From positions 17,583 through 81,582 of the forward strand of contig CAZCYZ010000001.1 in the NCBI GenBank assembly GCA_964503465.1: a stretch of DNA of 64,000 nt, given 5' to 3'. This DNA is from an uncultured Gammaproteobacteria bacterium (lineage in GTDB: Bacteria > Patescibacteriota > Microgenomatia > UBA12405). The stretch's first letter is position 1. Every line of letters begins with the position of its first letter. Below the pieces are notes generated by a model. It was not told where the DNA came from. It did no database searches and saw nothing but the letters and a program-made list of their open reading frames with translations. A program made the translations under genes and the position numbers. This document shows, in pieces, positions 1-40,032 of the stretch.

Positions 1-951
1 ATTTCCACCAGTATTAAAAAAGACCCCGTTGACGCTGTTTTCAAATTCGAAAACAATCAGGTTCTCGATTTTCAATCCGCTCAGAATGGTTACACCATTA
101 TTGTAGATCAAACCAATCTTGATCTCTGTCAGTCTTTGGGTAAACTTATCGATTCTCCCGACAAAACCCTGTCCATTACTCTCCCTTTAAGTTTTACCCC
201 TCCAAAAATCACCAACTCCGATGTTAATAGTCTTGGAATCAAGGAGCTTCTTGGTCGTGGTACTAGCAGTTTTTCTCACAGCACCGCCATTCGTAATTTT
301 AATGTCGAAAAAGGTGCCTCAATTGTCAATCGTCTTCTTGTCGCTCCTGGTGACGAGTTCTCTTTCCTTAAGGCCCTGGGAGATGTTACTCTCGAAGCAG
401 GATATAAGAAAGCCTATGTCATCAAAAAAGGTAAAACCGAACTTGATGTTGGCGGTGGAATTTGTCAGGTTTCGACTACTTTCTTTCGTGCCATTCTCAA
501 TGCCGGTCTCGATATCACTCAACGCAAAGCTCATGCTTATCGGGTTCAGTATTATGAAGAAGATACCAAACCTGGTTTTGATGCCACTGTATTCATTCCC
601 AGCCCCGACTTAAGATTTATCAACGATACTGGTCATTATCTTCTTATTCAAAGCCAATATGATGGCAAAAATAAAAAATTGGCCTATGAAATTTATGGCA
701 CCTCCGATGGTCGTACTGTTGAAGTTAGTAATTATCGCCAATGGGATTACGCCCCTCCTCCTCCGGATATTTACATCGACGATCCAACTCTTCCCCCCGG
801 TAAGGTAGTTAAGGACGAATCTCGTATTCCCGGTCTCAAGACTTCATTTGATTGGAAAGTTAGTCGCAATGGTGAAACCATTCATCAAAAAAGTTTTGTC
901 AGTAACTACGTCCCTTGGGCTGCCGTCTACCGACGAGGCCCATCGCTATAA
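1..951 (+). CDS. VanW-domain protein, 5' end outside the window
   Basis: Frame 1 is open from nt 1 through the annotated ORF 136..951. The motif LDVGGGICQVSTTFFRA is typical of the VanW family. Confidence 0.6.
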   Translation: MSTSIKKDPVDAVFKFENNQVLDFQSAQNGYTIIVDQTNLDLCQSLGKLIDSPDKTLSITLPLSFTPPKITNSDVNSLGIKELLGRGTSSFSHSTAIRNFNVEKGASIVNRLLVAPGDEFSFLKALGDVTLEAGYKKAYVIKKGKTELDVGGGICQVSTTFFRAILNAGLDITQRKAHAYRVQYYEEDTKPGFDATVFIPSPDLRFINDTGHYLLIQSQYDGKNKKLAYEIYGTSDGRTVEVSNYRQWDYAPPPPDIYIDDPTLPPGKVVKDESRIPGLKTSFDWKVSRNGETIHQKSFVSNYVPWAAVYRRGPSL

Positions 952-2025
952 TTCTGCTCTCGGGTCCCTGTCTAATTTTCCAATATTTCCTACATATTCT
1001 TCTCTCATTGCCTTGTAGTATCCCGCCACTCCAATCATCGCCGCATTGTCGGTGTTTAGCCATTTTTTTACTGGCATATAAATTGGCAATTCCATCTCCC
1101 TAGCTAATCTTCTCAATTTTCTTCTCAAATCCAAATTAGCCATCACTCCGCCACAAGCCAACAAACTTTTTGGTTTATATCCCTTAACTGCTAATTTATA
1201 TTTCCGTAATAATTGCTCAAACACCGCCTCCTGAAAACTGGCCGCCAAATTTTCTAAATTTTTGCCAATCTTATCTTTTGGCCAATCTTTGATTTGGTAA
1301 TAAAATGATGTCTTCAGCCCCGAAAAACTATAATCCAATGTTTTTTTGTCAGCCATTGGGTGGGGGAGAGGCAAAAAATTTTTGTCTCCTGTCAATGCCA
1401 ACCTCTCAATCACTGGACCGCCCGGGTATCCCAACCCCAGCAATTTACTCGCCTTGTCCAATGCCTCACCCGCCGCGTCATCCAATGTCTCCCCAACCAC
1501 TTCATATTCGCCAACTTTTCCCATCAAAATAATTTTGGTATGACCCCCAGACACCGTCAACACTAGTCCTGGTAGGTCTATTTTTCTCTCCGGCAAACCC
1601 TTAGAATTTTTTACCCAATTACTCAATATATGCCCTTCTATGTGGTTAACCGCTACTAATTTTTTATTATATTTAATCGCCAGTTTTTTGGCTGTATCCA
1701 CTCCCACTCCCAATGCCGGCGCTAATCCCGGTCCTACCGTCACCGCAACCACATCGACACCCATCATTAAAAAATCCAATTCCCCTCCTTTTCTCAAGGG
1801 AGGGGTTAGGGGTGGGTTTTGTCTTATTTTTGATCTTTTTAGTGCTTCCAATATCACTGGCATAATTCTTTCGCTATGGGCTCGCTTGGCCAAGTCAGGT
1901 ACCACCCCTCCCCACTTTTTGTGTAAATCAATCTGTGACGATATTACTGATGACCACAATCGGTCATTGTTCAACACCGCCGCCGCGGTATCATCGCAAC
2001 TCGTTTCTATTGCCAAAATTCGCAC
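946..2025 (-). CDS. tsaD: tRNA N6-adenosine threonylcarbamoyltransferase TsaD (Kae1/YgjD family)
   Basis: N-terminus MRILAIETSCDDTAAAV. Motifs VTVGPGLAPALGVG and GGVMANLDLRR are present. There is an extra insert of ~15 aa (RQNPPLTPPLRKGGELDF) relative to canonical TsaD. Confidence 0.85.
   Translation of the reverse strand: MRILAIETSCDDTAAAVLNNDRLWSSVISSQIDLHKKWGGVVPDLAKRAHSERIMPVILEALKRSKIRQNPPLTPPLRKGGELDFLMMGVDVVAVTVGPGLAPALGVGVDTAKKLAIKYNKKLVAVNHIEGHILSNWVKNSKGLPERKIDLPGLVLTVSGGHTKIILMGKVGEYEVVGETLDDAAGEALDKASKLLGLGYPGGPVIERLALTGDKNFLPLPHPMADKKTLDYSFSGLKTSFYYQIKDWPKDKIGKNLENLAASFQEAVFEQLLRKYKLAVKGYKPKSLLACGGVMANLDLRRKLRRLAREMELPIYMPVKKWLNTDNAAMIGVAGYYKAMREEYVGNIGKLDRDPRAEL
1781..1820. repeat. 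Dispersed G/C-rich imperfect-palindrome repeat, copy 1, in-frame inside tsaD
   Basis: Sequence tcccctccttttctcaagggaggggttaggggtgggtttt. It shares the tcccctccttttctc and caaggga(r)gg...gggttt blocks with the copies at 2888, 3068 and 23601. Confidence 0.6.
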
Positions 2026-2089: not shown

Positions 2090-2677
2090 ATGAAATCCTC
2101 CTCCCAAAGTTACCTTTATTTAATTTTTGCCATCGTTCTTCTTACTATTTCCATTATCGGTGTCATCAGTCTTTATCGTCGTTCGTCTTCGCCATCAGTT
2201 GCCGCTCCAACTCCCACGTCCTCACCGCGTGGCTATCCTTCGCCCAGTTACGATTTTGAAACTGCTTCTGTTTCCCCCACCATTACCTCCGGTCTTTCCA
2301 TGGACGAAATTGAACCCACCCCCACCCACCAGCAATACACTGGCGATACTTTTCAGCTCAAATACCCTTCTTATCGAAAATTAACCATCGAAAATGAAAC
2401 CAGTGGCAAACGTTATGTTTTCTACTCCAATATTGGCAATATCACTCTTCATTCTGGTTCTGCCTGGTCCTGGACCCACCCCAGCCGTCAATTTAGCTCT
2501 ACTCTGCTTGTTGCCGATCAGCCAACTTTCCGCTATGACACTGCCACTCAAACTATCATCGATTTTCAACAAGGCGATCAACTGTTTACTATCCAATGCG
2601 TTCATAACGGTAAACCTACCCTCAAAACCGAATGTGACCAGTTTGTGGCTAGTTTTCAGTTCTCAAACAAAAACTGA
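2090..2677 (+). CDS. Hypothetical membrane-anchored protein with Pro/Ser/Thr-rich linker
   Basis: N-terminal hydrophobic helix (YLYLIFAIVLLTISIIGVISL) followed by a PT-rich low-complexity region. No recognisable catalytic motif. Confidence 0.4.
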   Translation: MKSSSQSYLYLIFAIVLLTISIIGVISLYRRSSSPSVAAPTPTSSPRGYPSPSYDFETASVSPTITSGLSMDEIEPTPTHQQYTGDTFQLKYPSYRKLTIENETSGKRYVFYSNIGNITLHSGSAWSWTHPSRQFSSTLLVADQPTFRYDTATQTIIDFQQGDQLFTIQCVHNGKPTLKTECDQFVASFQFSNKN

Positions 2678-3773
2678 TCTTTCTTGTCTGTTCGTCCACA
2701 TACTCAAAATTCACTGCTACGTATTTAACCTTCTTTTTTAACTGCGCCAGGTATTTCCTTCCCATATTTTCCGGCCATTCAATACACGCCACCGTCTTTT
2801 CTCCAAACTGTCCCAAAAAATTTATTTCTTCCAATTCTCTCTCGCTCGAGATTCGATACAAATCAAAATGCAAAAACTTCAACAATTCCCCTTGCCCTGT
2901 CAAGGGAAAGGGGTTAGGGGTTAGGGTTTTATATTCATTAAAAATCACAAAAGTCGGACTGACAATCTTCTCTTTTACTCCTAGCATTTTCCCCAGCCCT
3001 CTAGCAAACACCGTTTTACCGCACCCCAAGTCCCCACTCAACCCAAAAACTAACGGTTTAACTTGTGTCCTGTCAAGGGAAAGGTGGTACGAAGTACCAA
3101 AGGGTTTCTTTAATAAGAAACCCGCCACCTTTTCCGTCTCTCTTACCGACTTTGATATCAAGCTTTTACTATCCCCAGTTGTCAAATCTCCTCGTCTTAA
3201 CACCTCTATTTCTGGCTTGGTCGTATCAATTACCGTTGATGGTTTGTTTCTTGAAAGTTTGCCCACATCAACTATCAAGTCAATCATCCCTCTCTTCTTT
3301 TTTGACAAAGTTCTTAGAAAACTTTTTATCGAATAATGCGGTGTTCTACCTGATAGGTTAGCCGAAGTTGCCGTTATTGGCCCATCTAATACCCCAACCA
3401 AATCACTAATATATTTATTGTCCGGAATTCGTATCCCCAATGTTCCATTTTCTGCTTCTATTCCTTTGGTTACTCGGTGTTTTCCCTTCGATACTACCGT
3501 AAACGGACCAGGTAATAAATTCTTGTATATTTGTTCTGCACTTTCGGACAGCTCAACAAATTCTTGAGCCATCTTTTTATCCGCCACTGCTATCGATATC
3601 GCCTTTCCCGTCCACCTGTTTTTAAATGCCAACAGTTTATCAACTGCCAATTTATTAGTCGGGTCAACTGCCAATATATACACCGTGTCACTTGGGTACA
3701 CCACCAATCCACCGTCTTTAATCACCCTCATTGCCTGCTGAATATTTTCGTCCATTGTTTCCGATTTTACCAT
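2649..3773 (-). CDS. Fusion protein: L-threonylcarbamoyladenylate synthase TsaC/YrdC-Sua5 domain (N-terminal) plus TsaE/YjeE P-loop ATPase (C-terminal)
   Basis: N-terminal half has YrdC motifs (VVYPSDTVYILAVD, ATSANLSGRTP). C-terminal half has the TsaE Walker A GDLGCGKT, SPTFVIFNEY and HFDLYRI. It contains two in-frame copies of the dispersed repeat. Confidence 0.75.
   Translation of the reverse strand: MVKSETMDENIQQAMRVIKDGGLVVYPSDTVYILAVDPTNKLAVDKLLAFKNRWTGKAISIAVADKKMAQEFVELSESAEQIYKNLLPGPFTVVSKGKHRVTKGIEAENGTLGIRIPDNKYISDLVGVLDGPITATSANLSGRTPHYSIKSFLRTLSKKKRGMIDLIVDVGKLSRNKPSTVIDTTKPEIEVLRRGDLTTGDSKSLISKSVRETEKVAGFLLKKPFGTSYHLSLDRTQVKPLVFGLSGDLGCGKTVFARGLGKMLGVKEKIVSPTFVIFNEYKTLTPNPFPLTGQGELLKFLHFDLYRISSERELEEINFLGQFGEKTVACIEWPENMGRKYLAQLKKKVKYVAVNFEYVDEQTRKISFCLRTEN
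2888..2930. repeat. Dispersed repeat, copy 2, in-frame inside the TsaE domain
   Basis: Sequence ccccttgccctgtcaagggaaaggggttaggggttagggtttt. It encodes the extra peptide TLTPNPFPLTGQGEL between the conserved NEY and HFDLYRI motifs of TsaE. Confidence 0.65.
3068..3106. repeat. Dispersed repeat, copy 3, at the TsaC/TsaE domain junction
   Basis: Sequence tcctgtcaagggaaaggtggtacgaagtaccaaagggtt. It has the same cctgtcaagggaaagg core, in a different reading frame (encodes HLSLDRT), followed by a tggtac-gaa-gtacca hairpin. Confidence 0.55.
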
Positions 3774-10335: not shown

Positions 10336-10682
10336 TTTTCTTCATGCACTGGATCTATGCCCACCTGATAGGGGACTATCTTCTCCAAAATGACTGGATG
10401 TCACAGAACAAAAAACTTGCCTCCTGGCCATGTTTTGTTCACACCATTACCTACCTAATTCCCTTCATTTTTACCCCACTTGCTTGGTGGCAATTAGTTC
10501 TTATTTTTCTTCAACATTTTTTTCAGGACCGCTTCCAATTTGCTTATTGGTTCCTCCGTCTTAAGGGATCACCTGATTTTGCCATGCCTCCCACTGCCCC
10601 TTGGTCCCTCATTGTTATCGACAATATCTTTCACATTCTCTTTGTCGCCTTCATTGCCTGGTTGCCACAAGTGTTTCTCTAG
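10281..10682 (+). CDS. Hypothetical membrane protein (DUF3307-like HxxGDYLLQ motif). The real start is probably at Met 10344
   Basis: HWIYAHLIGDYLLQ motif and several hydrophobic helices. The stop codon immediately abuts the tRNA-fragment locus. Confidence 0.3.
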   Translation: MASALLARDNQKNLLGSIIFFMHWIYAHLIGDYLLQNDWMSQNKKLASWPCFVHTITYLIPFIFTPLAWWQLVLIFLQHFFQDRFQFAYWFLRLKGSPDFAMPPTAPWSLIVIDNIFHILFVAFIAWLPQVFL

Positions 10683-10740
10683 TGGGCATGCATGGAGTCG
10701 AACCATGGACCCCTCCGACGTCACGTCGGAGTGCTCTAAC
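10683..10740 (-). pseudogene. Partial tRNA (3' portion: palindromic anticodon-arm position, T-arm, acceptor 3' strand) of a paralog of the adjacent tRNA-Ile
   Basis: The reverse complement reads gagcac-TCCGACGTGACGTCGGA-ggggtc-catgg-ttcgact-ccatg-catgccc-a. No acceptor 5' strand or D-arm is present. The T-arm is identical to tRNA-Ile at 11006..11082. Confidence 0.5.
10705..10740. repeat. 36-bp perfect direct repeat, copy A (contains a 17-bp TCCGACGTCACGTCGGA near-palindrome)
   Basis: atggacccctccgacgtcacgtcggagtgctctaac is identical to 11092..11127. Confidence 0.8.
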
Positions 10741-11005
10741 TAACAAGTTTGCAATAACCATCACGGATTATTTTATCCAGTACAATTTTAGACTTTAATT
10801 TTTTCAGTCTAAATTCGACACTTCTTGCTGCCCGTAAACTTTGACACTTTTGACTAAACACTATCCTCCACGGAATTCCGCTTTTAGTGGCTCTTACTAA
10901 TCCAAGATTATGTTGTTTATTCAATCGTCTCTCTGGATCATTCGAGCTACCTACATAATATTTCCCAGTCAAACCACTCTTTAGGACATAAATATATCCC
11001 ACCAT
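10736..11005 (-). CDS. GIY-YIG nuclease family protein (UPF0213/YhbQ-like, ~89 aa)
   Basis: GYIYVLKSGLTGKYYVGSSNDPERRLNKQHN is a GIY-YIG motif with the conserved Arg and His-Asn. The start was set at the second Met so that it does not overlap the tRNA. The stop codon lies inside direct repeat copy A. Confidence 0.65.
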   Translation of the reverse strand: MVGYIYVLKSGLTGKYYVGSSNDPERRLNKQHNLGLVRATKSGIPWRIVFSQKCQSLRAARSVEFRLKKLKSKIVLDKIIRDGYCKLVS

Positions 11006-11082
11006 TGGTGGGTGTGCATGGATTCGAACCATGGACCCTCGACTTATAAGATCGATGCTCTAACCAACTGAGCTACACACCC
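11006..11082 (-). tRNA. tRNA-Ile (anticodon UAU) with encoded CCA
   Basis: Reverse complement GGGTGTG-TA-GCTC-AGTTGGTTA-GAGC-A-TCGAT-CTTATAA-GTCGA-GGGTC-CATGG-TTCGAAT-CCATG-CACACCC-A-CCA is a full cloverleaf. Confidence 0.7.
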
Positions 11083-11091
11083 AAATTTTAA

Positions 11092-11127
11092 ATGGACCCC
11101 TCCGACGTCACGTCGGAGTGCTCTAAC
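11092..11127. repeat. 36-bp perfect direct repeat, copy B
   Basis: Identical to 10705..10740. Confidence 0.8.
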
Positions 11128-11144
11128 CACCAAGCTACATGCCC
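11093..11144 (-). pseudogene. Partial tRNA (5' portion: acceptor 5' strand, D-arm, palindromic anticodon-arm position) with its own TATAAT promoter
   Basis: Reverse complement gggcatg-ta-gctt-ggtggtta-gagc-ac-TCCGACGTGACGTCGGA-ggggtccat, then diverges. Upstream (minus strand) is ttgatataattcc 13 nt before the tRNA 5' end. Confidence 0.5.
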
Positions 11145-11260
11145 AATACTATGGAATTATATCAATTGTATCCTTCTGGTAGTATAAGTCGGGTGACTTA
11201 ATCCAAGAGAACTTTTATCGCCGTAGGCGAAATATAAATAAAGCGGATAATCGGAACAAA

Positions 11261-11304
11261 GTGACGATATAAGATCGGTGCTCTAACCACCAAGCTACAT
11301 GCCC
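11261..11304 (-). pseudogene. Chimeric partial tRNA (same 5' acceptor/D-arm as 11093..11144 fused to an Ile-like cgatcttata anticodon region) with a duplicated promoter
   Basis: Reverse complement gggcatgtagcttggtggttagagcac-cgatcttatatcgtcac. The upstream flank ttggtataattcc duplicates the promoter-like flank of 11093..11144. Confidence 0.45.
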
Positions 11305-11325
11305 AAAATTAAGGAATTATACCAA

Positions 11326-11580
11326 TTATCGACCTACAATAGCTCTCAGCACTCGCTTTTCCGCTGTAATTAAATTTCCCCCTTCCAACTCCTGCATATC
11401 AGTTCTTACTGTCTGCCATGCTTCTGTCCTGGCTTCCCTCGCCCCCCAGAACTTTCTGGTTCGTTCTGCAGGTTGTCCTATCACTTTTCCATTCTTGTCA
11501 ACTCCTTTGGCGGCCCTGCTCAACTGTTCATTAACTGCCCGAAACTTAGACAGATCACTCTCTAACTTATCACCAGGCAT
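11326..11580 (-). CDS. Hypothetical protein
   Basis: 84-aa ORF between the tRNA fragments and tRNA(CAU). No recognisable motif. Confidence 0.3.
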   Translation of the reverse strand: MPGDKLESDLSKFRAVNEQLSRAAKGVDKNGKVIGQPAERTRKFWGAREARTEAWQTVRTDMQELEGGNLITAEKRVLRAIVGR

Positions 11581-23600: not shown

Positions 23601-23652
23601 TCCCTCCTTTTCTCCCCCTGCCCTGTCAAGGGAAGGGTCGGGGAAGGGTTTG
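23601..23652. repeat. Dispersed repeat, copy 4 (intergenic, upstream of dnaG)
   Basis: tccctccttttctccccctgccctgtcaagggaagggtcggggaagggtttg. It shares the tccctccttttctc block with copy 1 and the ccctgtcaagggaa block with copies 2 and 3. Confidence 0.6.
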
Positions 23653-23668
23653 ATGTTAAAATTACCCA

Positions 23669-27991: not shown

Positions 27992-28012
27992 GGGCTATTC
28001 TACCACTGAGAC

Positions 28013-28279
28013 TCATTGAACTATGTCACTTTCAAATACCACTCCGGGTACTGTTATCTGTCCTATTATGTCAATAGTCTCCAGTCTGTGCCCCGTTCCC
28101 CTGGTGGTTGGGCTTCGTGGGTGATTCAGATGGCTGTTCACCGCCATTATTATCGACGCCCTGTCAGTTAGTTTCCCATAGTCATCAGCGATTACTCTTT
28201 GACAAGTAACACAATGTATTCTTCTTTGTGGTCTCCGTTCTTTGTTTTCATCTCCCATAGGTCGTATATTAGCAGACAA
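28013..28279 (-). CDS. Hypothetical protein (possible JAMM/RadC-like remnant)
   Basis: 88-aa ORF. AVNSHLNHPRSPTT weakly resembles the HxHP..S JAMM motif. Confidence 0.2.
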   Translation of the reverse strand: MSANIRPMGDENKERRPQRRIHCVTCQRVIADDYGKLTDRASIIMAVNSHLNHPRSPTTRGTGHRLETIDIIGQITVPGVVFESDIVQ

Positions 28280-28410
28280 ATGTACAAATTAGTGGCTTTT
28301 GGGTCAGTGTTATTCTATAATCAATCCTAACTTTTGCACCTTTTACAACCCACATTACTTCAGTTTTAGTTTAAAACTTCAAATTTTAAATTAAAAATTG
28401 AATAAATATT

Positions 28411-28462
28411 CCCCTGTAGCTCTCCGCCAGCTGGCGGACGGTAGAGGCTCGCCTGTTAAAAT
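28411..28462 (+). pseudogene. Partial tRNA-Asn (5' portion to anticodon loop) with a 16-bp palindrome inserted in the D-loop
   Basis: cccctgtagctc-TCCGCCAGCTGGCGGA-cggtagag-g-ctcgcctgttaa, then diverges. The intact tRNA-Asn is 310 bp downstream. Confidence 0.5.
28416..28444. repeat. 29-bp perfect direct repeat, left copy, containing the 16-bp perfect palindrome TCCGCCAGCTGGCGGA
   Basis: gtagctctccgccagctggcggacggtag is identical to 28718..28746. Confidence 0.85.
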
Positions 28463-28467
28463 TAAGT

Positions 28468-28746
28468 GTGTATATCGTTTACGCGATTTACCACCCAAAA
28501 TCAGGAAAAATCTATATAGGTCAAACAGTCGACCTAGGTAATAGATTAAGGGAACATAACGATCCTAACTGCCAGCGCCATTTATATACCAAGAGGATCG
28601 GGATCGGCTGGGAAGTTCTTTATAAGGAAACTCAGCCGACCAGACAGCTTGCCTTAAAGCGAGAAAAACAGTTAAAAAGTTATCAAGGCAGATTGTTCAT
28701 TAAAAAACACATTACAGGTAGCTCTCCGCCAGCTGGCGGACGGTAG
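28468..28746 (+). CDS. GIY-YIG nuclease family protein (UPF0213/YhbQ-like, 92 aa, GTG start)
   Basis: VYIVYAIYHPKSGKIYIGQTVDLGNRLREHN matches GIY-YIG with the conserved Arg and His-Asn. The C-terminal 9 codons are encoded by the right direct repeat, and the stop is the last triplet of that repeat. Confidence 0.65.
   Translation: MYIVYAIYHPKSGKIYIGQTVDLGNRLREHNDPNCQRHLYTKRIGIGWEVLYKETQPTRQLALKREKQLKSYQGRLFIKKHITGSSPPAGGR
28718..28746. repeat. 29-bp perfect direct repeat, right copy
   Basis: Identical to 28416..28444. It is followed by a degenerate anticodon-stem-like sequence ggcaccgcctgtaat. Confidence 0.85.
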
Positions 28747-28772
28747 GGCACCGCCTGTAATACTCAATACAT

Positions 28773-28845
28773 TCCCCTGTAGCTCAGTCGGTAGAGCGCT
28801 CGCCTGTTAAGCGATCGGTCCGTGGTTCGAGTCCACGCGGGGGAG
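28773..28845 (+). tRNA. tRNA-Asn (anticodon GUU)
   Basis: tcccctg-ta-gctc-agtcggta-gagc-g-ctcgc-CTGTTAA-gcgat-cggtc-cgtgg-ttcgagt-ccacg-cggggga-g is a complete cloverleaf. No encoded CCA. Confidence 0.8.
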
Positions 28846-28947
28846 CAAGCAAAATATATCCTAAAGATACGTAACAAATGTTTCTATGGTATGGCAAGAG
28901 TGACAAGTATATAATGTGGTTAATCAATAATTAAATTACTCAAATCC

Positions 28948-29973
28948 ATGTCTCCTCAAAAAGAAAAAATAGTTACCTCAGAACCGGATCTTCCAATTGA
29001 TCGTTTACGTTTAGCCTTCCGCCTTCAAGAAAGAGTCGAAGAAATCGACCAGGCTTTAGAAATAGCGGCACGGCCAAAGGATGTTTTAGGATTCGATGGT
29101 GCCCAGCCCGCCACCTTAAACGAGTTTCATCAACTTCGTGAAGCATATCAAGCGAGGTTGGATCAATCTCTCGCAAGTATGGATCCTTCTACTCGCGAGC
29201 AGTATGAGGCTATTTCTACGGCACGTCAGACTGCCAGAGAGGAAGAAGATAGTAGGGTACAAGCCTATCTAAAAGACCATTTTGGTGTCGATTGGGTCGA
29301 AACAGGTAGAACGCGGTTTGAGTGGAAACGTGAACATCCCCTTAATGTTGATACCGAATTGAATCCTGGTCATACCTGGGAGCAATATGAGGTAACACCA
29401 GAAGTCATGGCTGAAAAGGCTAGATTGTCTATGGAATTGTCACTCGTCTTATATGTCAGCCAACTTGCCACCGATCCCAGAGATCGTGTTGCATTTGATT
29501 TGAGCCAAGAAGCCTCTCAGGATTTACAGCGTATTTCTAAATGCCTAATGATACAAACGAATCGCATGCTGACGACTAATGGTGAGCAAAGAGACAGAAT
29601 CAGGCGGTTTGAAGATGTTGCCTGGAACTTTCGCAGAGAGACTGATGGGTTTTATCGGGCATTCGAACAAATCGCCGGAGATTCTATTTTCGAACCATAC
29701 AAGAAAGAGGAACCTCCAACAGAAGGCACCAAAATTGAGGAAGAACCTGCAGAAGTTAAATTCTATACCAGAGAATGTCCTCACTGTCAGGTTCAGTTTC
29801 ATAGCCGAAAAGCCGAGGGAAAATGCTACAATTGCACCCTTGACGAAATTACCCACGGGAATCCTCCCGAGGAAGGTGACTTTAACTCTGCCGGCATTAT
29901 ATCCGGTACACTCACAGATGAAGAGTGGAAAAATCTTCAAGCCGATCTGGCTGCAGTTGAGCTGGGTAGATAG
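28948..29973 (+). CDS. Hypothetical protein with C-terminal zinc-ribbon (CPHC...CYNC)
   Basis: 341-aa ORF. Higher GC than the flanking genome. C-terminal CxxC...CxxC. Confidence 0.4.
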   Translation: MSPQKEKIVTSEPDLPIDRLRLAFRLQERVEEIDQALEIAARPKDVLGFDGAQPATLNEFHQLREAYQARLDQSLASMDPSTREQYEAISTARQTAREEEDSRVQAYLKDHFGVDWVETGRTRFEWKREHPLNVDTELNPGHTWEQYEVTPEVMAEKARLSMELSLVLYVSQLATDPRDRVAFDLSQEASQDLQRISKCLMIQTNRMLTTNGEQRDRIRRFEDVAWNFRRETDGFYRAFEQIAGDSIFEPYKKEEPPTEGTKIEEEPAEVKFYTRECPHCQVQFHSRKAEGKCYNCTLDEITHGNPPEEGDFNSAGIISGTLTDEEWKNLQADLAAVELGR

Positions 29974-30036
29974 TTCTGCTCCCATTCTTCCATCCAAATG
30001 CTATTCTATCGGTGAGTTTTTGTGGATATAACTGTT

Positions 30037-30070
30037 TCGAATGTTCTCCATCTCGTGGAGCATTGTGACC
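30037..30070. promoter_or_regulatory. Conserved palindromic upstream motif, copy 1 (tttcgaatgttctccatctcgtggagcatt)
   Basis: Near-inverted repeat AATGTTCTCCA / TGGAGCATT about 100 bp upstream of the 30141 start. A second copy lies at 30615..30648. Confidence 0.45.
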
Positions 30071-30140
30071 TCATATTTATAAATAAATCTGTGGCGATAT
30101 ATGTTTGAATTGAAGTTGCTAAACAGTTTATAATCACCTT

Positions 30141-30590
30141 ATGAAAGATGAATCATTAGTAATTACTGATTGGGATATGGATTATGCCGATCTCTCGCAG
30201 AGGGATGAGTATGAGGAACTTAAAGCCCAAATTACTGAAGTCTACGGTACACCAGAACGTGATTCAGTAGATTGGCAAGCGTGTCTTGATGCCACGCTAC
30301 TTGCCGTTTACCGTTCAGAAGTATCTCGTTGTCAAAGTCATGTTGTATCACCACCTGGATCAGAGACGGAAGAAGTCAGGCCGGCTGTTTTGGAGTCACA
30401 TCTTCGCATCGCTGAACAAAGATTAGCGATACACCTGGATCGTGTTGATCAAAGATGCTTGCAACCAGAATATGATACCGCTTTCGAACTTGCTGGCAAA
30501 AAATTAGACAAAGTATCCGAAGGTAATCCATACGCTGATATGTTTGTTCTTGCTCACTTAGGTGCTGGGTCGGTTCAGTTGGTAAGATAA
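30141..30590 (+). CDS. Hypothetical protein
   Basis: 149-aa ORF. TATAAT hexamer ends 6 nt before the ATG (tataatcaccttATG). Confidence 0.4.
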   Translation: MKDESLVITDWDMDYADLSQRDEYEELKAQITEVYGTPERDSVDWQACLDATLLAVYRSEVSRCQSHVVSPPGSETEEVRPAVLESHLRIAEQRLAIHLDRVDQRCLQPEYDTAFELAGKKLDKVSEGNPYADMFVLAHLGAGSVQLVR

Positions 30591-30614
30591 TCTAGAATTT
30601 GGAGAGCAGTAATT

Positions 30615-30648
30615 TTTCGAATGTTCTTCGTTCCGTAGAGCATTAAGT
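30615..30648. promoter_or_regulatory. Conserved upstream motif, copy 2 (tttcgaatgttcttcgttccgtagagcatt)
   Basis: Shares TTTCGAATGTTCT...GAGCATT with copy 1. Lies ~120 bp upstream of the 30769 start. Confidence 0.45.
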
Positions 30649-30768
30649 AACACCAAAAATTCTAAAATCATTCCACTCCTCGAGCCAGCAAAATATTTCC
30701 GAAGAATACGTACATTAACTCATGACACATAGTTTAGTAGAAGTGTTGTTCACTGCTATAATCATCCT

Positions 30769-31602
30769 ATGAACATAACCGCCGACACCAAAGTCATTGC
30801 TCGTCTTCATACCAAACCCAGTCCCAGAGGTCTTAATATCTATAATCCATTCTTTCAAGAATCTAATCTCAATGCTGTCTATCTACTCTTTTTTAACCCT
30901 GACCCGGCTCCTCTTATTTCAGCCATGCGTGGGTTTAATATCGCCGGAGCCATCACAGCCGGATTTGAGTCGGATGACAGACTTCCATCTCTTTTGGATG
31001 AAGTCGATGACGTTTCTGCCTACACGGGTCGAGTCGGGTTCATCACTAATAATGGTGGGAAATTAATCGGATCATCACAAGGTGGTCAGGGATTACTAAG
31101 ATCTATCCTCAAACATGGCCATATTGAAAATAAGAAACTTGTTATAGTCGGTTCTGGCAATATCGCCAAAGGATTGTTGTTTAACATAAAAAAACAGTTT
31201 CCTGATCCTCCCGAAGTAGTTCTAGTTAACCGCACAATTGAAAAGGCGCTATCCATTCAAAGAGATTTTTCATTTGTCACTTCCACCAAGTCAGTCACTG
31301 ATCTGTCTACCGAAACTGGTGATATTTTAGTTAATGCTACTGATATTGGTGGCAGTCAAGCTGACGATGTTTACACCGAATCAATCGTTGGCAACTTTCA
31401 GACGATAGCCGATGTCACTTTTGAAACCGAGAACACTAATCTGGTTAATCTGGCTAAGAAATTGAATAAACAATTCTCAACCGGCTGGGATATGTTTGCT
31501 TATCAAGGCCAGGTTATTCTCGAAAGTATCTTTCATACAGGCATTGATATTGGTTCGCTCAGAAAGCATGTTGTAAGTGGATTATCAGAAGTTGTTTCTT
31601 AG
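30769..31602 (+). CDS. Shikimate/quinate 5-dehydrogenase-like protein (AroE family)
   Basis: N-terminal substrate-binding domain resembles the AroE family. NAD(P)-binding region has VIVGSGNIAKG (Rossmann glycine motif) and VNRT...DILVNATDIG. Confidence 0.55.
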   Translation: MNITADTKVIARLHTKPSPRGLNIYNPFFQESNLNAVYLLFFNPDPAPLISAMRGFNIAGAITAGFESDDRLPSLLDEVDDVSAYTGRVGFITNNGGKLIGSSQGGQGLLRSILKHGHIENKKLVIVGSGNIAKGLLFNIKKQFPDPPEVVLVNRTIEKALSIQRDFSFVTSTKSVTDLSTETGDILVNATDIGGSQADDVYTESIVGNFQTIADVTFETENTNLVNLAKKLNKQFSTGWDMFAYQGQVILESIFHTGIDIGSLRKHVVSGLSEVVS

Positions 31603-31644
31603 TTTATGCCCGTGTAATTTAGGCATTCGATAGCTAATCAACAT

Positions 31645-32757
31645 ATGTCCGAGAATCCTCAGTCAATAGTCAGTCGAGAAAAACCACCAGTTGACCTATT
31701 GGCCGACGAAGTTGTCAGATTAAGAGAATCACTCGAAAGACGTGGCGAACAATTGGGTTTTTCCAACATCCTAGCTTTGTCTTATGTTGTCGAACTTTAT
31801 TCTAGCGTTAATGGTCAACAATCCCTAGTGGAGTGGTTTCGTGACCCAAAATCTGACGAAGAAATTTTTACTCTTCAACAATCAGTGGACTTAGGACATG
31901 TACTCGAAAATGCCAATAGGTTATCGGCCATTCATGGGATAACTCCTCCTCCGTTATCTACCGATCTTACTGTTCCCCAAGATCAATTGGCTATTCCCAG
32001 GACACCCGCCCAAGTTGATCAAGAGATTCTCGATGCTACTGAAACCTTACCCGGTGAACGTCTAATTACCCTTTTTCGCTATGTTGATACCGTTGGTTGG
32101 AGAGATGACACCCAGTCCATGGAGCCAGATGAGATTAGATCATTTATGGATGAACCGTCTAATCAGGTAATCAATCACGCTCGAGGCTTACGATTTCCCG
32201 TGGCAAGTATTGAGGACGCTCGAGGCATTAGACATGAATCGTTATTTGCTCTTAGCCAGCTAATTACATATCCAAGATTTGTTTTGGATAGAACTGATGA
32301 TGTTGTTTATTCCGGATTAGTCAATGAACCAAGACACCTTGACATCCTTCGTGAACACTTACTCCTCTCGGAAAGGGAGTCACTGGCTCGCTCTGTTCAA
32401 AGGGCTGACAAAGTTGTTGCTTTTACCTCCGCATCAGTTGGTAGTCAAGGTCTATGTAATTGGGGATTTTTTTGTATTGAAATGCAGGTCCCAGAGAGAT
32501 TAATTCTCAATGTTCGAGACTTGTGTATTCAGGGCGATGAAGTTATGGGTGACAACGATGGAGTTGATCCGGACACACGACAGAGACTATCACTCTCAAT
32601 TCATTCCTACCCACCTCCACTAGAAACTTATCAAAGTGTTGGCGGTATTCACCTAGACGAAATGGCTGTTCTTGGGGGTATTAGGCGAGAGTGGGTAAGG
32701 TCTGTCATCGACATTAGGGACCAATCAATTGTGTGGCAGAAATCGTCAGACAAGTAA
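31645..32757 (+). CDS. Hypothetical protein
   Basis: 370-aa ORF with no recognised motif. Confidence 0.4.
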   Translation: MSENPQSIVSREKPPVDLLADEVVRLRESLERRGEQLGFSNILALSYVVELYSSVNGQQSLVEWFRDPKSDEEIFTLQQSVDLGHVLENANRLSAIHGITPPPLSTDLTVPQDQLAIPRTPAQVDQEILDATETLPGERLITLFRYVDTVGWRDDTQSMEPDEIRSFMDEPSNQVINHARGLRFPVASIEDARGIRHESLFALSQLITYPRFVLDRTDDVVYSGLVNEPRHLDILREHLLLSERESLARSVQRADKVVAFTSASVGSQGLCNWGFFCIEMQVPERLILNVRDLCIQGDEVMGDNDGVDPDTRQRLSLSIHSYPPPLETYQSVGGIHLDEMAVLGGIRREWVRSVIDIRDQSIVWQKSSDK

Positions 32758-32842
32758 TTTTCTATCTACCCCTTGCTGTGTCGTTGTTCGTCCAAATATA
32801 ATACGATTATAGCCTATAACATGATATAATCCCATTCATATT

Positions 32843-33484
32843 ATGCCCGTAACTATTGAACAAGTTGGCCATGCTTGGGATGGTCTGACTGCCGAGGATC
32901 ATGCTTATGGTCAAATTGTCGCCACTGGTATGGCCGCTATCCTTGAATCGCGTGGATATGGTCATGATGCCGGGCCAATTTGGCAAACCATTGGTGTCAG
33001 TCAGGAAGTTCAACTTAGACTTGACCCACAGGAGACATTTACTAGGGCAATTGAGTTAGTTATGTTGAATGATGGTGGCGATCCCGACTCTCAACAGTTT
33101 GTTCAATGGCTTCAGGGCAATGGCCTTCAACAACTTACCGATCCTCGATTGACGCCTTACCTTGAACCTTATCTTGCTACTTCTGACAGCACCCCGTTTG
33201 TTAATCGACTTCTAAGTTTTGTCAATCATCCCATTCCTTATGATCAAATATCTACCAAGCACGACCTTGGCTATTTTCCTCAATGTTACCTAACCTTTAT
33301 TTCTGTCCTACTCGCTTCACGTCTTAGTGGTGCTGGCAACACCGAGTTGATTACTCGCCTTAGGGAAGCATCATCAGAATTACTCACTACTCCTGACTTT
33401 CAAAGAATTGTTGGTCTCTATGCTACTATTACCGACACTCGGCAATTTGCCGAACAATTATCAATCTCTACATTTAATGCCTAA
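32843..33484 (+). CDS. Hypothetical protein
   Basis: 213-aa ORF. A TATAAT lies 14 nt upstream of the ATG. Confidence 0.4.
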   Translation: MPVTIEQVGHAWDGLTAEDHAYGQIVATGMAAILESRGYGHDAGPIWQTIGVSQEVQLRLDPQETFTRAIELVMLNDGGDPDSQQFVQWLQGNGLQQLTDPRLTPYLEPYLATSDSTPFVNRLLSFVNHPIPYDQISTKHDLGYFPQCYLTFISVLLASRLSGAGNTELITRLREASSELLTTPDFQRIVGLYATITDTRQFAEQLSISTFNA

Positions 33485-34010
33485 AGATCGTTTATATGGC
33501 CTTCCCGTACGTACTAAGGTCGTCAAAATAACTCAAGGTTGGCACGGTCCGTTTAGTCATCAGGATCTCGGCGGTGGTCGAACAGATATGACCTTTGCTG
33601 TTGATTTTAGTGCCGAAGAAGATACCCCGGTTGTAGCCGCCAGAGCTGGTAAACCCAGAATTGTTGTCGATCATCACCAAAGCCACTACGAAGGTGATGA
33701 CCCAAAAATAGGTTTAGCCGTTAACACCACCAATCTGGTGATTATCGAGCATCGAGATGGCACCGAAGTGGAATATACAGTCTATTCTCACCTTAAGCCA
33801 GGCAGTGTGCCAGAAAAAGTTAAAAACGGACAAATGGTTGATGAGGGAGAACAAATAGGTCTATCTGGAAAAAGTGGTTGGGTTCCTGTGCCCCATGTTC
33901 ATTTCCAGGTTTTGTCTCGTAAATCTCCAGATCAAAGATTAAGAAGTCGCCCAGTACGTTTTAGGGGTTATAACGGTCCACTGGAAGACGATAAGATTAG
34001 AGGAAAATAA
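33480..34010 (+). CDS. M23-family (lysostaphin-like) metallopeptidase domain protein (start uncertain; the annotated ORF starts at 33408)
   Basis: HQDLGGGRTDMTFAVDF, GEQIGLSGKSGWVPVPHVHFQV. HxxxD and HxH are typical of the M23 family. Confidence 0.55.
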   Translation, partial: PKDRLYGLPVRTKVVKITQGWHGPFSHQDLGGGRTDMTFAVDFSAEEDTPVVAARAGKPRIVVDHHQSHYEGDDPKIGLAVNTTNLVIIEHRDGTEVEYTVYSHLKPGSVPEKVKNGQMVDEGEQIGLSGKSGWVPVPHVHFQVLSRKSPDQRLRSRPVRFRGYNGPLEDDKIRGK

Positions 34011-34044
34011 CATCCTTATAACATTTCAAATGCTATAATTACCC

Positions 34045-34350
34045 ATGACCATTGAAGCTACTAAACGCCAAATCGGTATATCTAGGGTCTTTGATGTCTT
34101 AGCCAAAGTCCATATTGAAAAACATTTACCAGGAGAGGTTCCGGTACTACGTCAACTACAGTGGGAAAACCCAGGGTCTGCCGATGCTAGATTGTTAAGT
34201 ACAGTTATTACCTTAAGACAACAAGGCAAAATGCCCGATGCTCGCACTATGTGGGCTGATGCAGAGAGAATGTACGATCTGCCTGTCGATAGACAAGGAG
34301 ATGCTTATCTTGCTTACCACCAGAGAGTATTTAGCGATCAATCAAAATAA
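34045..34350 (+). CDS. Hypothetical protein
   Basis: 101-aa ORF. TATAAT ends 6 nt before the ATG. Confidence 0.35.
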   Translation: MTIEATKRQIGISRVFDVLAKVHIEKHLPGEVPVLRQLQWENPGSADARLLSTVITLRQQGKMPDARTMWADAERMYDLPVDRQGDAYLAYHQRVFSDQSK

Positions 34351-34355
34351 TAATT

Positions 34356-34844
34356 ATGGCAAAAACTGAATTTGCATCTGAACTACGTCGATTAACTGAG
34401 AAACATGGACCAAAACTTGGCCTAAAGCCGAATGAAGTTGTTGGTGCGGTTATGGTTTGGCCGTCTAAAGCGGACATGCGACGATTTCAGGAAGGCATAC
34501 CGGAAGAATTATTAGCCCTCAAGGAGCTTAAGGCCGTTCAAGAAACTGGACAAGTCGTTGCTGAATTAAACGCTGGCAATATCCCACTTACTCGAGAACA
34601 AATTCAAAGGCTATCGCCACGAAGAGGAGTTGGAATTCGTATTCTTTGGAGTCTAAGTACTGGCGAGGATACTGCCACAATAAATGAAGAATTGGATGGT
34701 GGTACTAGACGAGGTATCAGAACTCGAGTTCTCACTGATACAGAAAAACAATCAGTCGGTATTCTCGATGACGTTGTTACCGTCACTACCCTTCGATTAC
34801 GTCCTGATAGTCCTATTCTTAGAAAAGTCAAACCAGCATCTTAA
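34356..34844 (+). CDS. Hypothetical protein
   Basis: 162-aa ORF, 5 nt after the previous stop. Confidence 0.35.
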   Translation: MAKTEFASELRRLTEKHGPKLGLKPNEVVGAVMVWPSKADMRRFQEGIPEELLALKELKAVQETGQVVAELNAGNIPLTREQIQRLSPRRGVGIRILWSLSTGEDTATINEELDGGTRRGIRTRVLTDTEKQSVGILDDVVTVTTLRLRPDSPILRKVKPAS

Positions 34845-34958
34845 AAATTTCATCCACACAATGACTGAAAAAACCCAATGGTTATTTGATAGAAGTAAAT
34901 TAATGCGTGGTGCATCTCCAGTTACTCTAGAGGTCGAACTTACCCCCCAGAACTGGCT

Positions 34959-35240
34959 TTGTTAGAAGAAATTCGGGCCCTCGAAGATAGTCCTGAAGTT
35001 GGCCACAGTGTTGCTTCGGGTTCTGGATATATGAGGCAGTATGAAACAGAAAAACGAGCCCCCTTTGGTTATCGTTTGACCAGACCAAGGGGAGAGGTTT
35101 TGGCTGACGCCAGAGCCAGTCGTGATTATCTTCGTCAAAATCTCGCGGGAATTGATAGACAGTCATCTGAATGTTCTACTCAAGTTAGGGGAATCATCTC
35201 CAGACTAAACAAAGTGCTTGGCGAGGAAGAAGATAAATAA
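34959..35240 (+). CDS. Hypothetical protein
   Basis: 93-aa ORF. Weak. Confidence 0.25.
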   Translation: MLEEIRALEDSPEVGHSVASGSGYMRQYETEKRAPFGYRLTRPRGEVLADARASRDYLRQNLAGIDRQSSECSTQVRGIISRLNKVLGEEEDK

Positions 35241-35301
35241 TCCGTCACCCACTTCCTCATACCTGTACTATTCATTCGGGGGAGCCCAGTATAATATACT
35301 C

Positions 35302-35727
35302 ATGAAACGTGTCATCTCTGCCGGTGGAATAATCACCAAAATAGAAAACGATCAGCTCAAGATTTGTCTTGTCCGATTAAGACCTCCAATGAAGGGTTAT
35401 GTTTTTCCCAAAGGTCATGTTGAATTGGGTGAAACTTATGAACAAACTGCCCTCCGAGAGGTGGCCGAAGAAACCGGATTGTCTAATTTAACTATCAAAC
35501 AGAAGTTGGGCGTTGTTCAAAGACAATCAACTGAAAACGACGGCACTCAAGTGACTAAGAATATTCATCTTTATTTGATGACTACCGATAGTTTTCAGCA
35601 TAACCAATCAGACGAAAGATATGAATGGTTTACTATTGACGAGGCTCTCAAAGCTCTTAATTTTATTGAAGAAAAAGAGTTCTTATTCAAAAACAGAGAT
35701 CAAATTTGCGACTCCGATCAGCTCTAA
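35302..35727 (+). CDS. NUDIX hydrolase
   Basis: Nudix box GHVELGETYEQTALREVAEETGL (GX5EX7REUXEEXGU). The start was taken at MKRV, with a TATAAT ending 8 nt upstream. Confidence 0.7.
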   Translation: MKRVISAGGIITKIENDQLKICLVRLRPPMKGYVFPKGHVELGETYEQTALREVAEETGLSNLTIKQKLGVVQRQSTENDGTQVTKNIHLYLMTTDSFQHNQSDERYEWFTIDEALKALNFIEEKEFLFKNRDQICDSDQL

Positions 35728-35750
35728 ATCTCCACCACTCCCCGAGCACC

Positions 35751-35787
35751 AAAAATCCCCTCCATCACGGAGGAGATTTTAGTTTTT
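35751..35787. terminator. Bidirectional intrinsic terminator
   Basis: aaaaa-tcccctcc-atcac-ggaggaga-tttt, lying between convergent genes. Confidence 0.45.
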
Positions 35788-35799
35788 GTAAACAGAACT

Positions 35800-36162
35800 T
35801 TACTGGCTGTTGTTCATTCCACAACCTCTACCACTCCCATTTCCTCGCCCCATTCCATATTTGGCTCTAAAAGCATTCAATAGGGTAGGGTCACCTTTTT
35901 GAGCCGTCAGTTGAGCTGTCGCAAACTCTTTGAAGTTAGATTCGTTGACGAATCGAGTGGCACCACGTCCGGCCATATTGGCGACCCAGGCTTTGTAATC
36001 ACCTTTTTGAAAGGCAGTCACGTTGACAGTGTGTCTGGCTTCTGTGTAATTAGGGCCACGAACTGTGGCATCACCACGATAAGCAAGAACCGGGGCAAAT
36101 GATTTAACAGCTACTAAGCCCAGTGCTATCGCGGCGATACCAAGAGCAATTTGAGTTTTCAT
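35800..36162 (-). CDS. Small secreted hypothetical protein
   Basis: Signal-peptide-like N-terminus MKTQIALGIAAIALGLVAV. Gly/Arg-rich C-terminus. Confidence 0.35.
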   Translation of the reverse strand: MKTQIALGIAAIALGLVAVKSFAPVLAYRGDATVRGPNYTEARHTVNVTAFQKGDYKAWVANMAGRGATRFVNESNFKEFATAQLTAQKGDPTLLNAFRAKYGMGRGNGSGRGCGMNNSQ

Positions 36163-36222
36163 ATAAATTGATTTGAATTATTAATATGACTTGCGCAGTC
36201 TATTAGTAATACAAACCAGGCC

Positions 36223-37453: not shown

Positions 37454-37578
37454 GGCTTATATATAGTATATATACAGTTAGCCCAATGATTTTCTTTCAC
37501 TCAAATCATTTATCTCTAACTTGCCGGGTGTAATATAATCACTCCATACCAATAATTATGTTATTTTAAAGCCAAAAT

Positions 37579-37839
37579 ATGAAAATCCAAGTTTTGGGCT
37601 CTGGTTGCCCCACCTGTAAGAGGCTTTATGAATTGACTCAAACTGCCGTTAAAGAACTGAATGTTGATGCTGAAGTTGAATATTCCACCGACATTTCAAA
37701 AATCATTGAACTTGGTGTTATGGAATCACCAGTTATGACCATTGACGGCAAAATAGCTCTTCTTGGTTCTGCCAGTTTAGAAAAAATCAAAGACATTATT
37801 ACCAAAAAACCTACTTGCACCTGTGGAGGTAAATGTTAA
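37579..37839 (+). CDS. Thioredoxin-fold redox-active disulfide protein (CxxC)
   Basis: MKIQVLGSGCPTCKRL resembles the small redox-active disulfide protein 2 family. Confidence 0.6.
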   Translation: MKIQVLGSGCPTCKRLYELTQTAVKELNVDAEVEYSTDISKIIELGVMESPVMTIDGKIALLGSASLEKIKDIITKKPTCTCGGKC

Positions 37840-39982: not shown

Positions 39983-40032
39983 ATTCCGTAAGCTATCTTT
40001 TTAATTTCGTCCAAGGTAAAGAGATTAGCAAC

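Follow-up and report, generated by a model that had tools for sequence, protein, structure and literature searches.

The question raised by this locus is whether a short G+C-rich hairpin lying in the frame of tsaD is merely a part of that gene, or whether it is one copy of a repeat that was inserted into it. We have analyzed this segment together with the whole stretch of 64,000 nucleotides in which it lies (the window in what follows) and with similar sequences in public collections. The host genome has 42% G+C and is about 92% coding; its closest named relatives are Candidatus Shapirobacteria (Microgenomates). The features of the window that bear on the question are listed in Table 1. Our conclusion is that the segment at 1781-1822 is likely a copy of a very small, G+C-rich family of dispersed repeats found in Shapirobacteria/Microgenomates-like genomes, which we read as a small non-autonomous mobile hairpin.

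Table 1. Repeat copies and their host genes, in positions of the window
Feature	Position	Strand	Subfamily	Remarks
Host gene tsaD	946..2025	-		359 aa, GTG start; intact; catalytic His and Asp residues conserved
Repeat copy	1781..1822	+	D	Hairpin 1782-1791/1796-1805, then G-tract tail; in-frame within tsaD
Host gene, fused Sua5/TsaC-TsaE	2649..3773	-		374 aa
Repeat copy	2887..2932	+	B	TsaE domain, between SPT and HFDLYR motifs, in-frame; TLTPNPFPLTGQGE
Repeat copy	3066..3108	+	C	N-terminal edge of TsaE domain, in-frame; PFGTSYHLSLDRT
Repeat copy	23613..23653	+	A	Intergenic, between a minus-strand gene ending at 23568 and a dnaG-like gene starting at 23669

The sequence of the copy in tsaD is TCCCCTCCTTTTCTCAAGGGAGGGGTTAGGGGTGGGTTTTGT. 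It opens with a 10-nt inverted repeat, the arms of which (CCCCTCCTTT and AAGGGAGGGG) are 90% complementary and are separated by a 4-nt loop. On the 3' side of the hairpin follows the G-tract tail GGGGTTAGGGGTGGGTTTT, which closes with GGGTTT at about position 1822. Only the first ~25 nt are thus palindromic, and the remainder is tail. Folded as single-stranded DNA the copy yields -8.2 kcal/mol (z = -2.8 versus shuffled sequences), and a stable hairpin is predicted by folding for both strands. The G-rich half, GGGAGGGGTTAGGGGTGGG, contains four runs of three or more G and, by inspection, fits a G-quadruplex motif. Translated on the minus strand, the copy supplies residues ~67-81 of TsaD, QNPPLTPPLRKGGE. 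The tsaD ORF matches the Pfam TsaD family (PF00814) with E = 5.5e-78, the match being broken into two stretches at the insert, and the protein keeps the metal-binding His residues and other invariant positions.

All four window copies share one orientation. An nhmmer model that we built from these four copies, which were thus also its training set, identifies exactly these four in the 64 kb, with E values from 5e-10 to 7e-6 and a next best match of E = 2.2. A second model, made from ~120 metagenome copies plus the 1781 copy, likewise recovers all four (E = 8e-12, 1e-10, 3e-5 and 1.5e-4). Degraded copies were sought by a peptide-motif scan of all six frames of the window, which returned only the four known copies. 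The GGGGTTAGGGGT pattern, allowing up to 2 mismatches, gave 6 matches versus 5 expected, and short-pattern counts are uninformative by themselves. The 3066 copy has lost most of its left arm and contains an inner GGTACGAAGTACC hairpin; it is read in a different element frame from the 2887 copy. An assembly artefact was rejected, since the identical tsaD DNA is present in an independent Logan assembly. An intron or intein was rejected because the element is too small and is frame-constrained, and a terminator because there is no T run and the intergenic copy is located between divergent genes.

The segment in tsaD and the two in sua5-tsaE are insertions into these genes. A syntenic relative (L246, near Shapirobacteria RBG_13_44_7) has a 343-aa TsaD and a 343-aa Sua5-TsaE that are without all three inserts. 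In a codon-level alignment with this relative the net gains are +54 nt at 1781 in tsaD, +39 nt at 3066 and +36 nt at 2887, all of them multiples of three, and each insert begins directly 3' of an A run (AAAA/CCC..., the slash marking the junction). Among 120 TsaD homologues with 58-100% identity, the short form without an insert at this site is found in 39; the remaining 81 carry inserts of +9 to +31 aa, with highly diverse sequences. Both TsaE sites are equally hypervariable in length among 120 Sua5-TsaE homologues. In one TsaD orthologue with 69% protein identity (P0032, from L003) the peptide NPPLTPPLRKGGE is identical, and the DNA at this site is nearly the same repeat, with a perfect 10-bp stem. 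Elsewhere the same site is filled by another subfamily: where the window has subfamily D in tsaD, the 65% identical orthologue of L005 has a subfamily B copy, of the 2887 type, and in a 77% identical Sua5-TsaE (L248) subfamily A takes the place of the window's subfamily B with an identical junction. The TsaE site of L246 itself reads AAAACC-AGA-GGGGGA, which resembles two element ends remaining after an internal deletion.

Relative to the solved structures 8iey and 6nak, the TsaD insert corresponds to a gap of 15-18 aa between a helix and the following strand. The TsaE insert corresponds to a gap of 12 aa between the SPT and HFDLYR motifs relative to 1htw. An AlphaFold model of the window TsaD has a mean pLDDT of 89.4 and places residues 66-80 in coil, with a mean pLDDT of 60 for residues 71-80. 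The model superposes on the E. coli and Aquifex TsaD proteins with TM scores of 0.85-0.91 (normalised to target length). It is therefore predicted that the TsaD fold is intact despite the insert, which would form a flexible coil.

These results bear on an earlier note, made from the sequence alone, which had described a ~40-bp G/C-rich imperfect palindrome within tsaD that adds a segment of ~15 aa (RQNPPLTPPLRKGGELDF) without disturbing the frame, with related copies at 2888, 3068 and 23601. The palindrome is real, although limited to the portion given above; the peptide was correctly translated and the frame is undisturbed, as the 359-aa ORF is intact. The related copies are also upheld, with boundaries refined to those of Table 1. 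The length of the extra segment required correction: it is 15-18 aa when compared with the solved TsaD structures, and 18 aa when compared with the empty site of L246, of which ~13-14 aa derive from the repeat. The note had proposed that orthologues be aligned, further copies sought and the insert placed on a structure. All three came out in its favour, since the insert is absent from L246 and from the 39 short homologues, more copies exist in public collections in addition to the four in the window, and the insert falls between helix and strand as a low-confidence coil in a normal fold. Orthologues having the same peptide without repeat DNA would have refuted it; those that share the peptide, in L002 and L003, carry repeat DNA.

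In the element a C-rich arm and a complementary G-rich arm enclose a 4-nt loop (STCA), and a G-tract tail follows that closes with GGGTTT; the total length is 36-47 nt. A metagenome scan with the 19-nt core TGCCCTGTCAAGGGAARGG found at least 120 loci, and the counts given here are those of samples. The sample contains 128 copies, 122 of them distinct, on contigs that mostly have 30-46% G+C and resemble the window genome. Consensus sequences were derived for subfamilies A (CCCTGCCCTGTCAAGGGAAGGGTYGGGGAAGGGTTT), B (CCCTTGCCCTGTCAAGGGAAAGGGTAGGGWTAGGGTTT) and C (GTGCCCTGTCAAGGGAAAGGTGGTACGAAGTACCAAAGGGTTT); in the window these correspond to the copies at 23613 (A), 2887 (B) and 3066 (C). The tsaD copy represents a further type, D, of which L003, L064 and L106 hold other examples. 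Related contigs carry ~43 copies per Mb, excluding the copy by which each contig was found; the window has 4 in 64 kb. When a copy is scored as gene-embedded if it lies in a stop-free frame with at least 40 codons on both sides, 43 of the 122 distinct copies (~35%) lie inside such frames. Roughly two thirds of the sampled copies are intergenic and have no fixed position relative to genes.

The genes that harbour embedded copies include, by Pfam match, a GT1 glycosyltransferase, MurB, a RadA-like protein, QueH, MiaA, a radical-SAM methylthiotransferase, ribonucleotide reductase (RNR), Fpg, PheT and an ATP-grasp protein. TsaE and a second TsaD site are also among the metagenome hosts, and TsaD/TsaE account for 8 of the 43 embedded copies. 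In the Fpg host the element corresponds to a gap of ~17-19 aa relative to 1l1t. In QueH the element-derived peptide substitutes for a native segment of about equal length and is not an addition. At one site (L162) there are multiple adjacent or nested inserts.

Embedded copies are read in five different frames and in both orientations, giving peptides such as PCPVKGRVGEGF, PALSREGSGKGL, KPFPNPSLDRAG and NPSQTLPLTGQG. The dispersed repeat is therefore a DNA element, and the idea of a peptide motif is contradicted. The consensus contains a stop in only one of its six reading frames, and the translations of the other five are rich in Pro, Gly, Ser and Arg. The closed frame, which has a TGA, is used by only 3 gene-embedded copies, whereas the two open frames on its strand are used by 13 and 11. 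From this depletion we infer that the inserts are likely translated and not removed; the inference rests on frame statistics, with no protein data. The unit lengths (38, 36, 37 nt and so on) are not confined to multiples of three, and a fit to the frame therefore decides which copies persist but is not inherent in the element.

Between subfamilies A and B one stem pair has changed with compensation, C:G versus T:A, and 110 of 111 copies are concordant for it. This change represents one or a few events, not 110, and the founding copies kept the stem; we consider it probable that the hairpin is under selection. We relied on the A/B pair because differences in loop length obscured stem-pair covariation in ungapped comparisons across phyla.

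The most striking clue to how copies are inserted comes from their orientation. Strand-wise GC skew is very strong in these genomes. On the + strand of the window the skew is -0.16 in plus-strand genes and -0.29 in minus-strand genes, and being negative in both it tracks the DNA strand, not the direction of transcription. Strand composition served as a proxy for replication direction. Among the copies with measurable local skew, 115 of 137 have the element's G-rich strand on the C-rich strand of the genome (p = 2e-16), and the Shapirobacteria loci found in a scan of reference genomes show the same orientation bias in 7 of 7 cases. The two cues to the leading strand conflict in the window, in that 26 of 36 large genes are on the + strand while the + strand is C-rich. 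Drift in base composition would favour the opposite orientation, so the bias comes from oriented insertion or from selection.

No target-site duplication was detectable in 95 copies, for which the best 3-mer flank match was 11 versus 5 expected, many offsets having been tried. The 5' flank is T-rich, and in gene sense the junctions are A runs. A tblastn search of 1.77 Mb of retrieved DNA for a Y1 transposase gave no match, which is a weak negative as the IS608 TnpA query was only approximate. There is no transposase ORF between the inverted copy pairs of L157 and L183, where the ORFs are ordinary or unknown proteins. No filled/empty polymorphism was seen between near-identical genomes, and recent movement is only inferred.

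The explanation that we propose is the following. Copies enter the chromosome beside A/T runs, without detectable target-site duplication. Because nearly all element frames are open and encode the composition described above, a gene still works when a copy comes to lie in one of its surface loops and the net gain is a multiple of three. The tsaD copy and the two sua5-tsaE copies are tolerated copies of this kind, by inference translated as extra flexible loops, and the same loops have been struck or overwritten again in related lineages, which makes them hypervariable. The element itself would be non-autonomous, and an enzyme acting in trans would move it in single-stranded form at the replication fork, in the style of IS200/IS605 and REP/RAYT. 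This mobilisation is inferred from three features: the conserved hairpin with its compensated stem, the lack of duplications and the strong orientation bias. Such a combination is characteristic of single-strand (HUH/Y1) transposition. No enzyme was identified, however, and we consider fork-coupled mobilisation in trans to be rather more doubtful than not. It is also possible that the recurrence at the three t6A sites reflects instead selection for function, or gene conversion between copies.

Sequences of this architecture are not confined to Shapirobacteria. Reference genomes were scanned with the pattern TCAARGGARN{0,1}GGGGYTRGGGG, which extends only from the loop through the G-rich arm into the first tracts of the tail; at least 120 matches were obtained. 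Most of them bear the complementary C-rich arm, which is absent from the search pattern, and the outer stem positions pair in 92-98% of the copies that belong to the 20-nt pattern class. The hosts include Sphingomonas, Erythrobacter, Nostoc, Anabaena, Dehalococcoidia, Ktedonobacterales, Binatus, Saprospiraceae and Planctomycetes, as well as, among the candidate phyla, Shapirobacteria, Peribacteria, Gracilibacteria and Parcubacteria. Most of the copies outside Shapirobacteria lie between genes. The architecture CCCCTYCCCT-TCAA-GGGARGGGG-YTRGGGGG-TKAGG is shared by Sphingomonadaceae, Nostocales, Chloroflexota, Binatota, Bacteroidota, Planctomycetota and several candidate-phyla lineages. These cross-phylum copies may be one family or may result from convergence. 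Among 2.9 million viral contigs, two scans gave just 1 and 5 matches, and on this basis phage carriage was rejected as the main vehicle. Neither the window nor six representative loci gave an Rfam family for the element; the sole Rfam matches were chance, miRNA-like ones in a Sphingomonas locus of 69% GC.

A bolder reading, which we consider no more than possible, is that the window element represents, in Shapirobacteria, one branch of a very widespread and, to the extent of our search, still unnamed family of ~40-nt 'hairpin plus G-tract' elements that move single-stranded at the replication fork. In gene-dense Microgenomates such elements would be the smallest known mobile DNA routinely residing inside essential genes. 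If this is true, they would generate hypervariable surface loops, for example on the t6A machinery.

The earlier note had likened the segment to Rickettsia palindromic elements (RPEs), which are dispersed palindromic repeats found in-frame in housekeeping genes (Ogata et al. 2000, via PMC10969869). The comparison holds for behaviour and not for membership. Like RPEs, the element is a multi-copy dispersed palindrome that lies in-frame in unrelated housekeeping genes of a small, gene-dense genome. RPE-bearing proteins stay functional, with the insert at tolerated surface positions, which for the window element is inferred from sequence and model. However, RPEs are ~100-150 bp long, so the element, at 36-47 nt, is 3-4 times shorter. 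Each RPE family encodes a conserved peptide of 30-50 aa, whereas the present element yields different peptides from its five frames. The host phylum is unrelated to Rickettsia, and the likeness is one of behaviour, as no RPE sequence was compared. The same note was not aware of a description in genomes of this kind. In a keyword and sequence-string search of the open literature we likewise found no account of the element or of in-frame repeats in these bacteria.

REP elements are reported to be associated with RAYT (Y1/HUH) transposases, and IS200/IS605 elements reportedly transpose as single strands (Nunvar 2010; Ton-Hoang 2010). REPs are short (20-40 nt), G+C-rich imperfect hairpins, a criterion that the element meets. 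It also shares with REP/RAYT and IS200/IS605 the lack of target-site duplication and an orientation tied to the replication strand, with strand composition as proxy in our case. In contrast, REPs are extragenic by definition, while the element lies in open frames in 3 of 4 window copies and in ~35% of sampled copies. The conserved 5' GTAG/GTGG head of REPs is absent from the consensus of each subfamily (A to D), and the search of 1.77 Mb with only an approximate query returned neither a RAYT nor a TnpA gene. As with PATE-like elements of the IS200/IS605 type, the element has hairpin-bearing ends, no duplication and an orientation bias. IS200/IS605 elements are inserted 3' of a specific tetra- or pentanucleotide by a Y1 transposase; for the present element only a T-rich 5' flank or an A-run junction is seen.

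Bacterial MITEs, of which the Coxiella QMITE is an example (PMC5896051), exceed 50 bp (50-500 bp) and have target duplications, whereas the element is smaller and none were detected. MITE terminal inverted repeats come from a parent IS, and no parent IS was seen here; the element ends AAACCCT...AGGGTTT are inverted solely through the hairpin and tail. Cyanobacterial small dispersed repeats (SDRs) are also reported (Elhai et al. 2008). With SDRs and MITEs the element has in common very small dispersed hairpins, compensatory stem changes, nested insertions and occasional intragenic copies. SDRs differ in being 21-27 nt long and restricted to one cyanobacterial group, and neither SDRs nor MITEs are known to occupy essential genes as frequently as this element does. 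By analogy, the closest counterpart in size, composition and behaviour is the set of G+C clusters of yeast mitochondrial DNA, some of which reportedly lie in-frame in var1 as optional clusters (Wenzlau and Perlman 1990; Weiller 1989). These too are mobile G+C hairpins of ~30-50 bp in an A+T-rich genome, with A/T-rich targets and in-frame tolerance. They reside, however, in an organelle genome with a single coding host gene, whereas the present element is bacterial and occupies many essential genes.

Several other explanations must be weighed against a mobile repeat. The first is that the copies are a useful cis-element kept by the t6A and other genes, such as a regulatory hairpin, a G-quadruplex switch or a site bound by a protein, with an effect on replication, transcription, mRNA stability or the speed of translation. 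In its favour, three of the four window copies, and 8 of the 43 embedded metagenome copies, are in t6A genes. The same three loops are filled in most orthologues, the stem was maintained through a compensated change, the orientation bias could also come from selection, and the same architecture is seen in many phyla. Against it, the gene is intact without the element in 39 of 120 TsaD orthologues and in L246, and the host genes are functionally unrelated. About two thirds of the copies are intergenic at no fixed position relative to genes, and different subfamilies, frames and lengths are found at one site. We consider this explanation unlikely.

The second explanation, also unlikely, is that the repeats spread without a transposase, by gene conversion, illegitimate recombination or template switching between copies and sites that contain A/T runs or are prone to hairpins, so that sites are overwritten and not newly struck. 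The absence of target-site duplications agrees with this, as does the failure to find a transposase in the 1.77 Mb or between the L157 and L183 pairs. Further support comes from different subfamilies at exactly one junction (AAAACC/...), from the adjacent or nested inserts of L162 and from the TsaE remnant of L246, which looks like an internally deleted element. Conversion alone, however, leaves unexplained both the arrival of the element in at least 20 unrelated genes and its strand-orientation bias.

A third possibility, that the element is removed from the transcript (as a mini-intron or processed hairpin) or bypassed by the ribosome and is thus absent from the protein, is compatible with the stable hairpin in both strands and with the absence of protein-level data, but it is very unlikely and already disfavoured, as it would free the reading frame, yet the stop-containing frame is depleted and every net insert in the window has a length divisible by three. 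A fourth view, likewise very unlikely, is that of an ordinary lineage-specific protein loop whose DNA likeness is a by-product of selection on the peptide; it can cite the identical NPPLTPPLRKGGE in an orthologue only 69% identical overall, but is already contradicted by the repeat DNA with its perfect stem in that same orthologue, by the unrelated peptides from five frames and both orientations, by the mostly intergenic copies and by covariation at the level of base pairs, not codons.

We thus retain the reading of a mobile hairpin repeat. What is likely new is a minimal hairpin repeat for which a candidate-phyla lineage routinely provides in-frame sites within its essential genes; the t6A genes are recurrent hot spots, and the strand bias is strong. 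Selfish DNA lying in-frame within essential genes has so far been essentially a curiosity of Rickettsia; the present case suggests that such residence may be a general result of hairpin repeats in genomes almost without intergenic space. The element accounts for a part of the unexplained length variation and low-complexity loops in the proteins of these bacteria, and this loop variation is relevant to annotation, alignment-based phylogeny and structure prediction. The inserts also show where, in enzymes such as TsaD, TsaE, Fpg, MurB and PheT, a loop naturally tolerates an insertion. Strand bias without target duplications offers a testable handle on the movement of tiny elements, and the architecture shared across phyla hints at a broadly distributed mobilising activity, as yet unidentified.

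In QueH (L193 / L243), the peptide that the element encodes, KPFPNPSLDRAG, lines up with a native stretch of the solved structure 7lc5 that is about as long; the loop has been swapped for the element, not lengthened by it. A second TsaD insertion site, ...GGHTKIVLITNPSQTLPLTGQGLEQKLNYTVIG, was found in the metagenome locus L189, within the beta-hairpin matching residues about 163-180 of the window TsaD. The 'empty' TsaE hairpin site of L246, a syntenic relative without the tsaD and sua5-tsaE inserts of the window, reads AAAACC-AGA-GGGGGA-AAA. Since this sequence seems to keep both ends of an element, the site could be a deletion or excision footprint instead of a site that was never occupied.

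A second repeat-like peptide family, ..NPSVLRT(A/S)PL(D/E/K)KG.., turns up repeatedly at the TsaD/TsaE hot spots that the element also occupies, and is present in other proteins of relatives as well (L162, L183, L186 and L202, plus the TsaD and TsaE homologue alignments). These peptides sometimes adjoin copies of the hairpin element, and the L162 inserts are tandem or nested.

The architecture CCCCTYCCCT-TCAA-GGGARGGGG-YTRGGGGG-TKAGG is a multi-copy, mostly intergenic repeat across many phyla. The reference-genome scan returned at least 120 loci (L006-L125), with hosts among Sphingomonadaceae, Nostocales, Chloroflexota, Binatus, Saprospiraceae, Planctomycetes, Peribacteria and Gracilibacteria. 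Rfam has no family for this hairpin-plus-G-tract architecture, and no name for it was found in the literature searched.

A conserved sequence of Lachnospiraceae, Clostridia and Atopobium, TTCAAAGGAGAGGGGTTAGGGGAAAGGATAGGAA(A/T)GGAAT, was rejected as a copy of the element: despite matching the search pattern (L010, L046, L049, L057, L068, L071, L090, L091, L094 and others) it is a different thing, without the complementary left arm. At the named loci it lies inside an open frame of 283-319 aa, conceivably part of a shared mobile-element gene.

Coordinates of the features discussed (window positions, except for L246)
Feature	Position	Strand	Size or period	Surrounding region
Sua5/TsaC-TsaE polypeptide	2649-3773			
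GIY-YIG ORF 1	10736-11032	minus		10680-11330
GIY-YIG ORF 2	28468-28746	plus		28416-28846
Near-zero-skew stretch	28000-40000 (~28-40 kb)			
Pro/Thr-rich tandem repeat	48635-48885		12-30 nt periods	
ORF holding this repeat	47070-49400		776 aa	
'Empty' TsaE site, L246				6007-7038

GC skew is very strong and strand-wise across the window (1-64000) with the exception of one stretch, where it is about 0 to -0.06; this stretch may have a foreign origin. The plus strand, which carries the majority of the tabulated large genes (26/36), is C-rich in genes of either direction (mean skew -0.16 for plus-strand and -0.29 for minus-strand genes). The median absolute GC skew in related metagenome contigs is 0.23.

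Two small GIY-YIG ORFs lie amid duplicated tRNA-gene fragments. The first has 5' and 3' tRNA-like pieces nearby, whose 'anticodon arm' is an unusual 8-bp palindrome (CTCCGACGTGACGTCGGAG); close to the second, GTAGCTCTCCGCCAGCTGGCGGACGGTAG occurs twice, adjoining tRNA-Asn. Both regions resemble GIY-YIG cassettes inserted at tRNA genes. The Pro/Thr-rich tandem repeat probably serves as a linker in a surface protein.

In the window, a single fused polypeptide combines Sua5/TsaC with TsaE. Both Pfam domains are present in 120 of the 120 best homologues, and the fusion is thus typical of this lineage.
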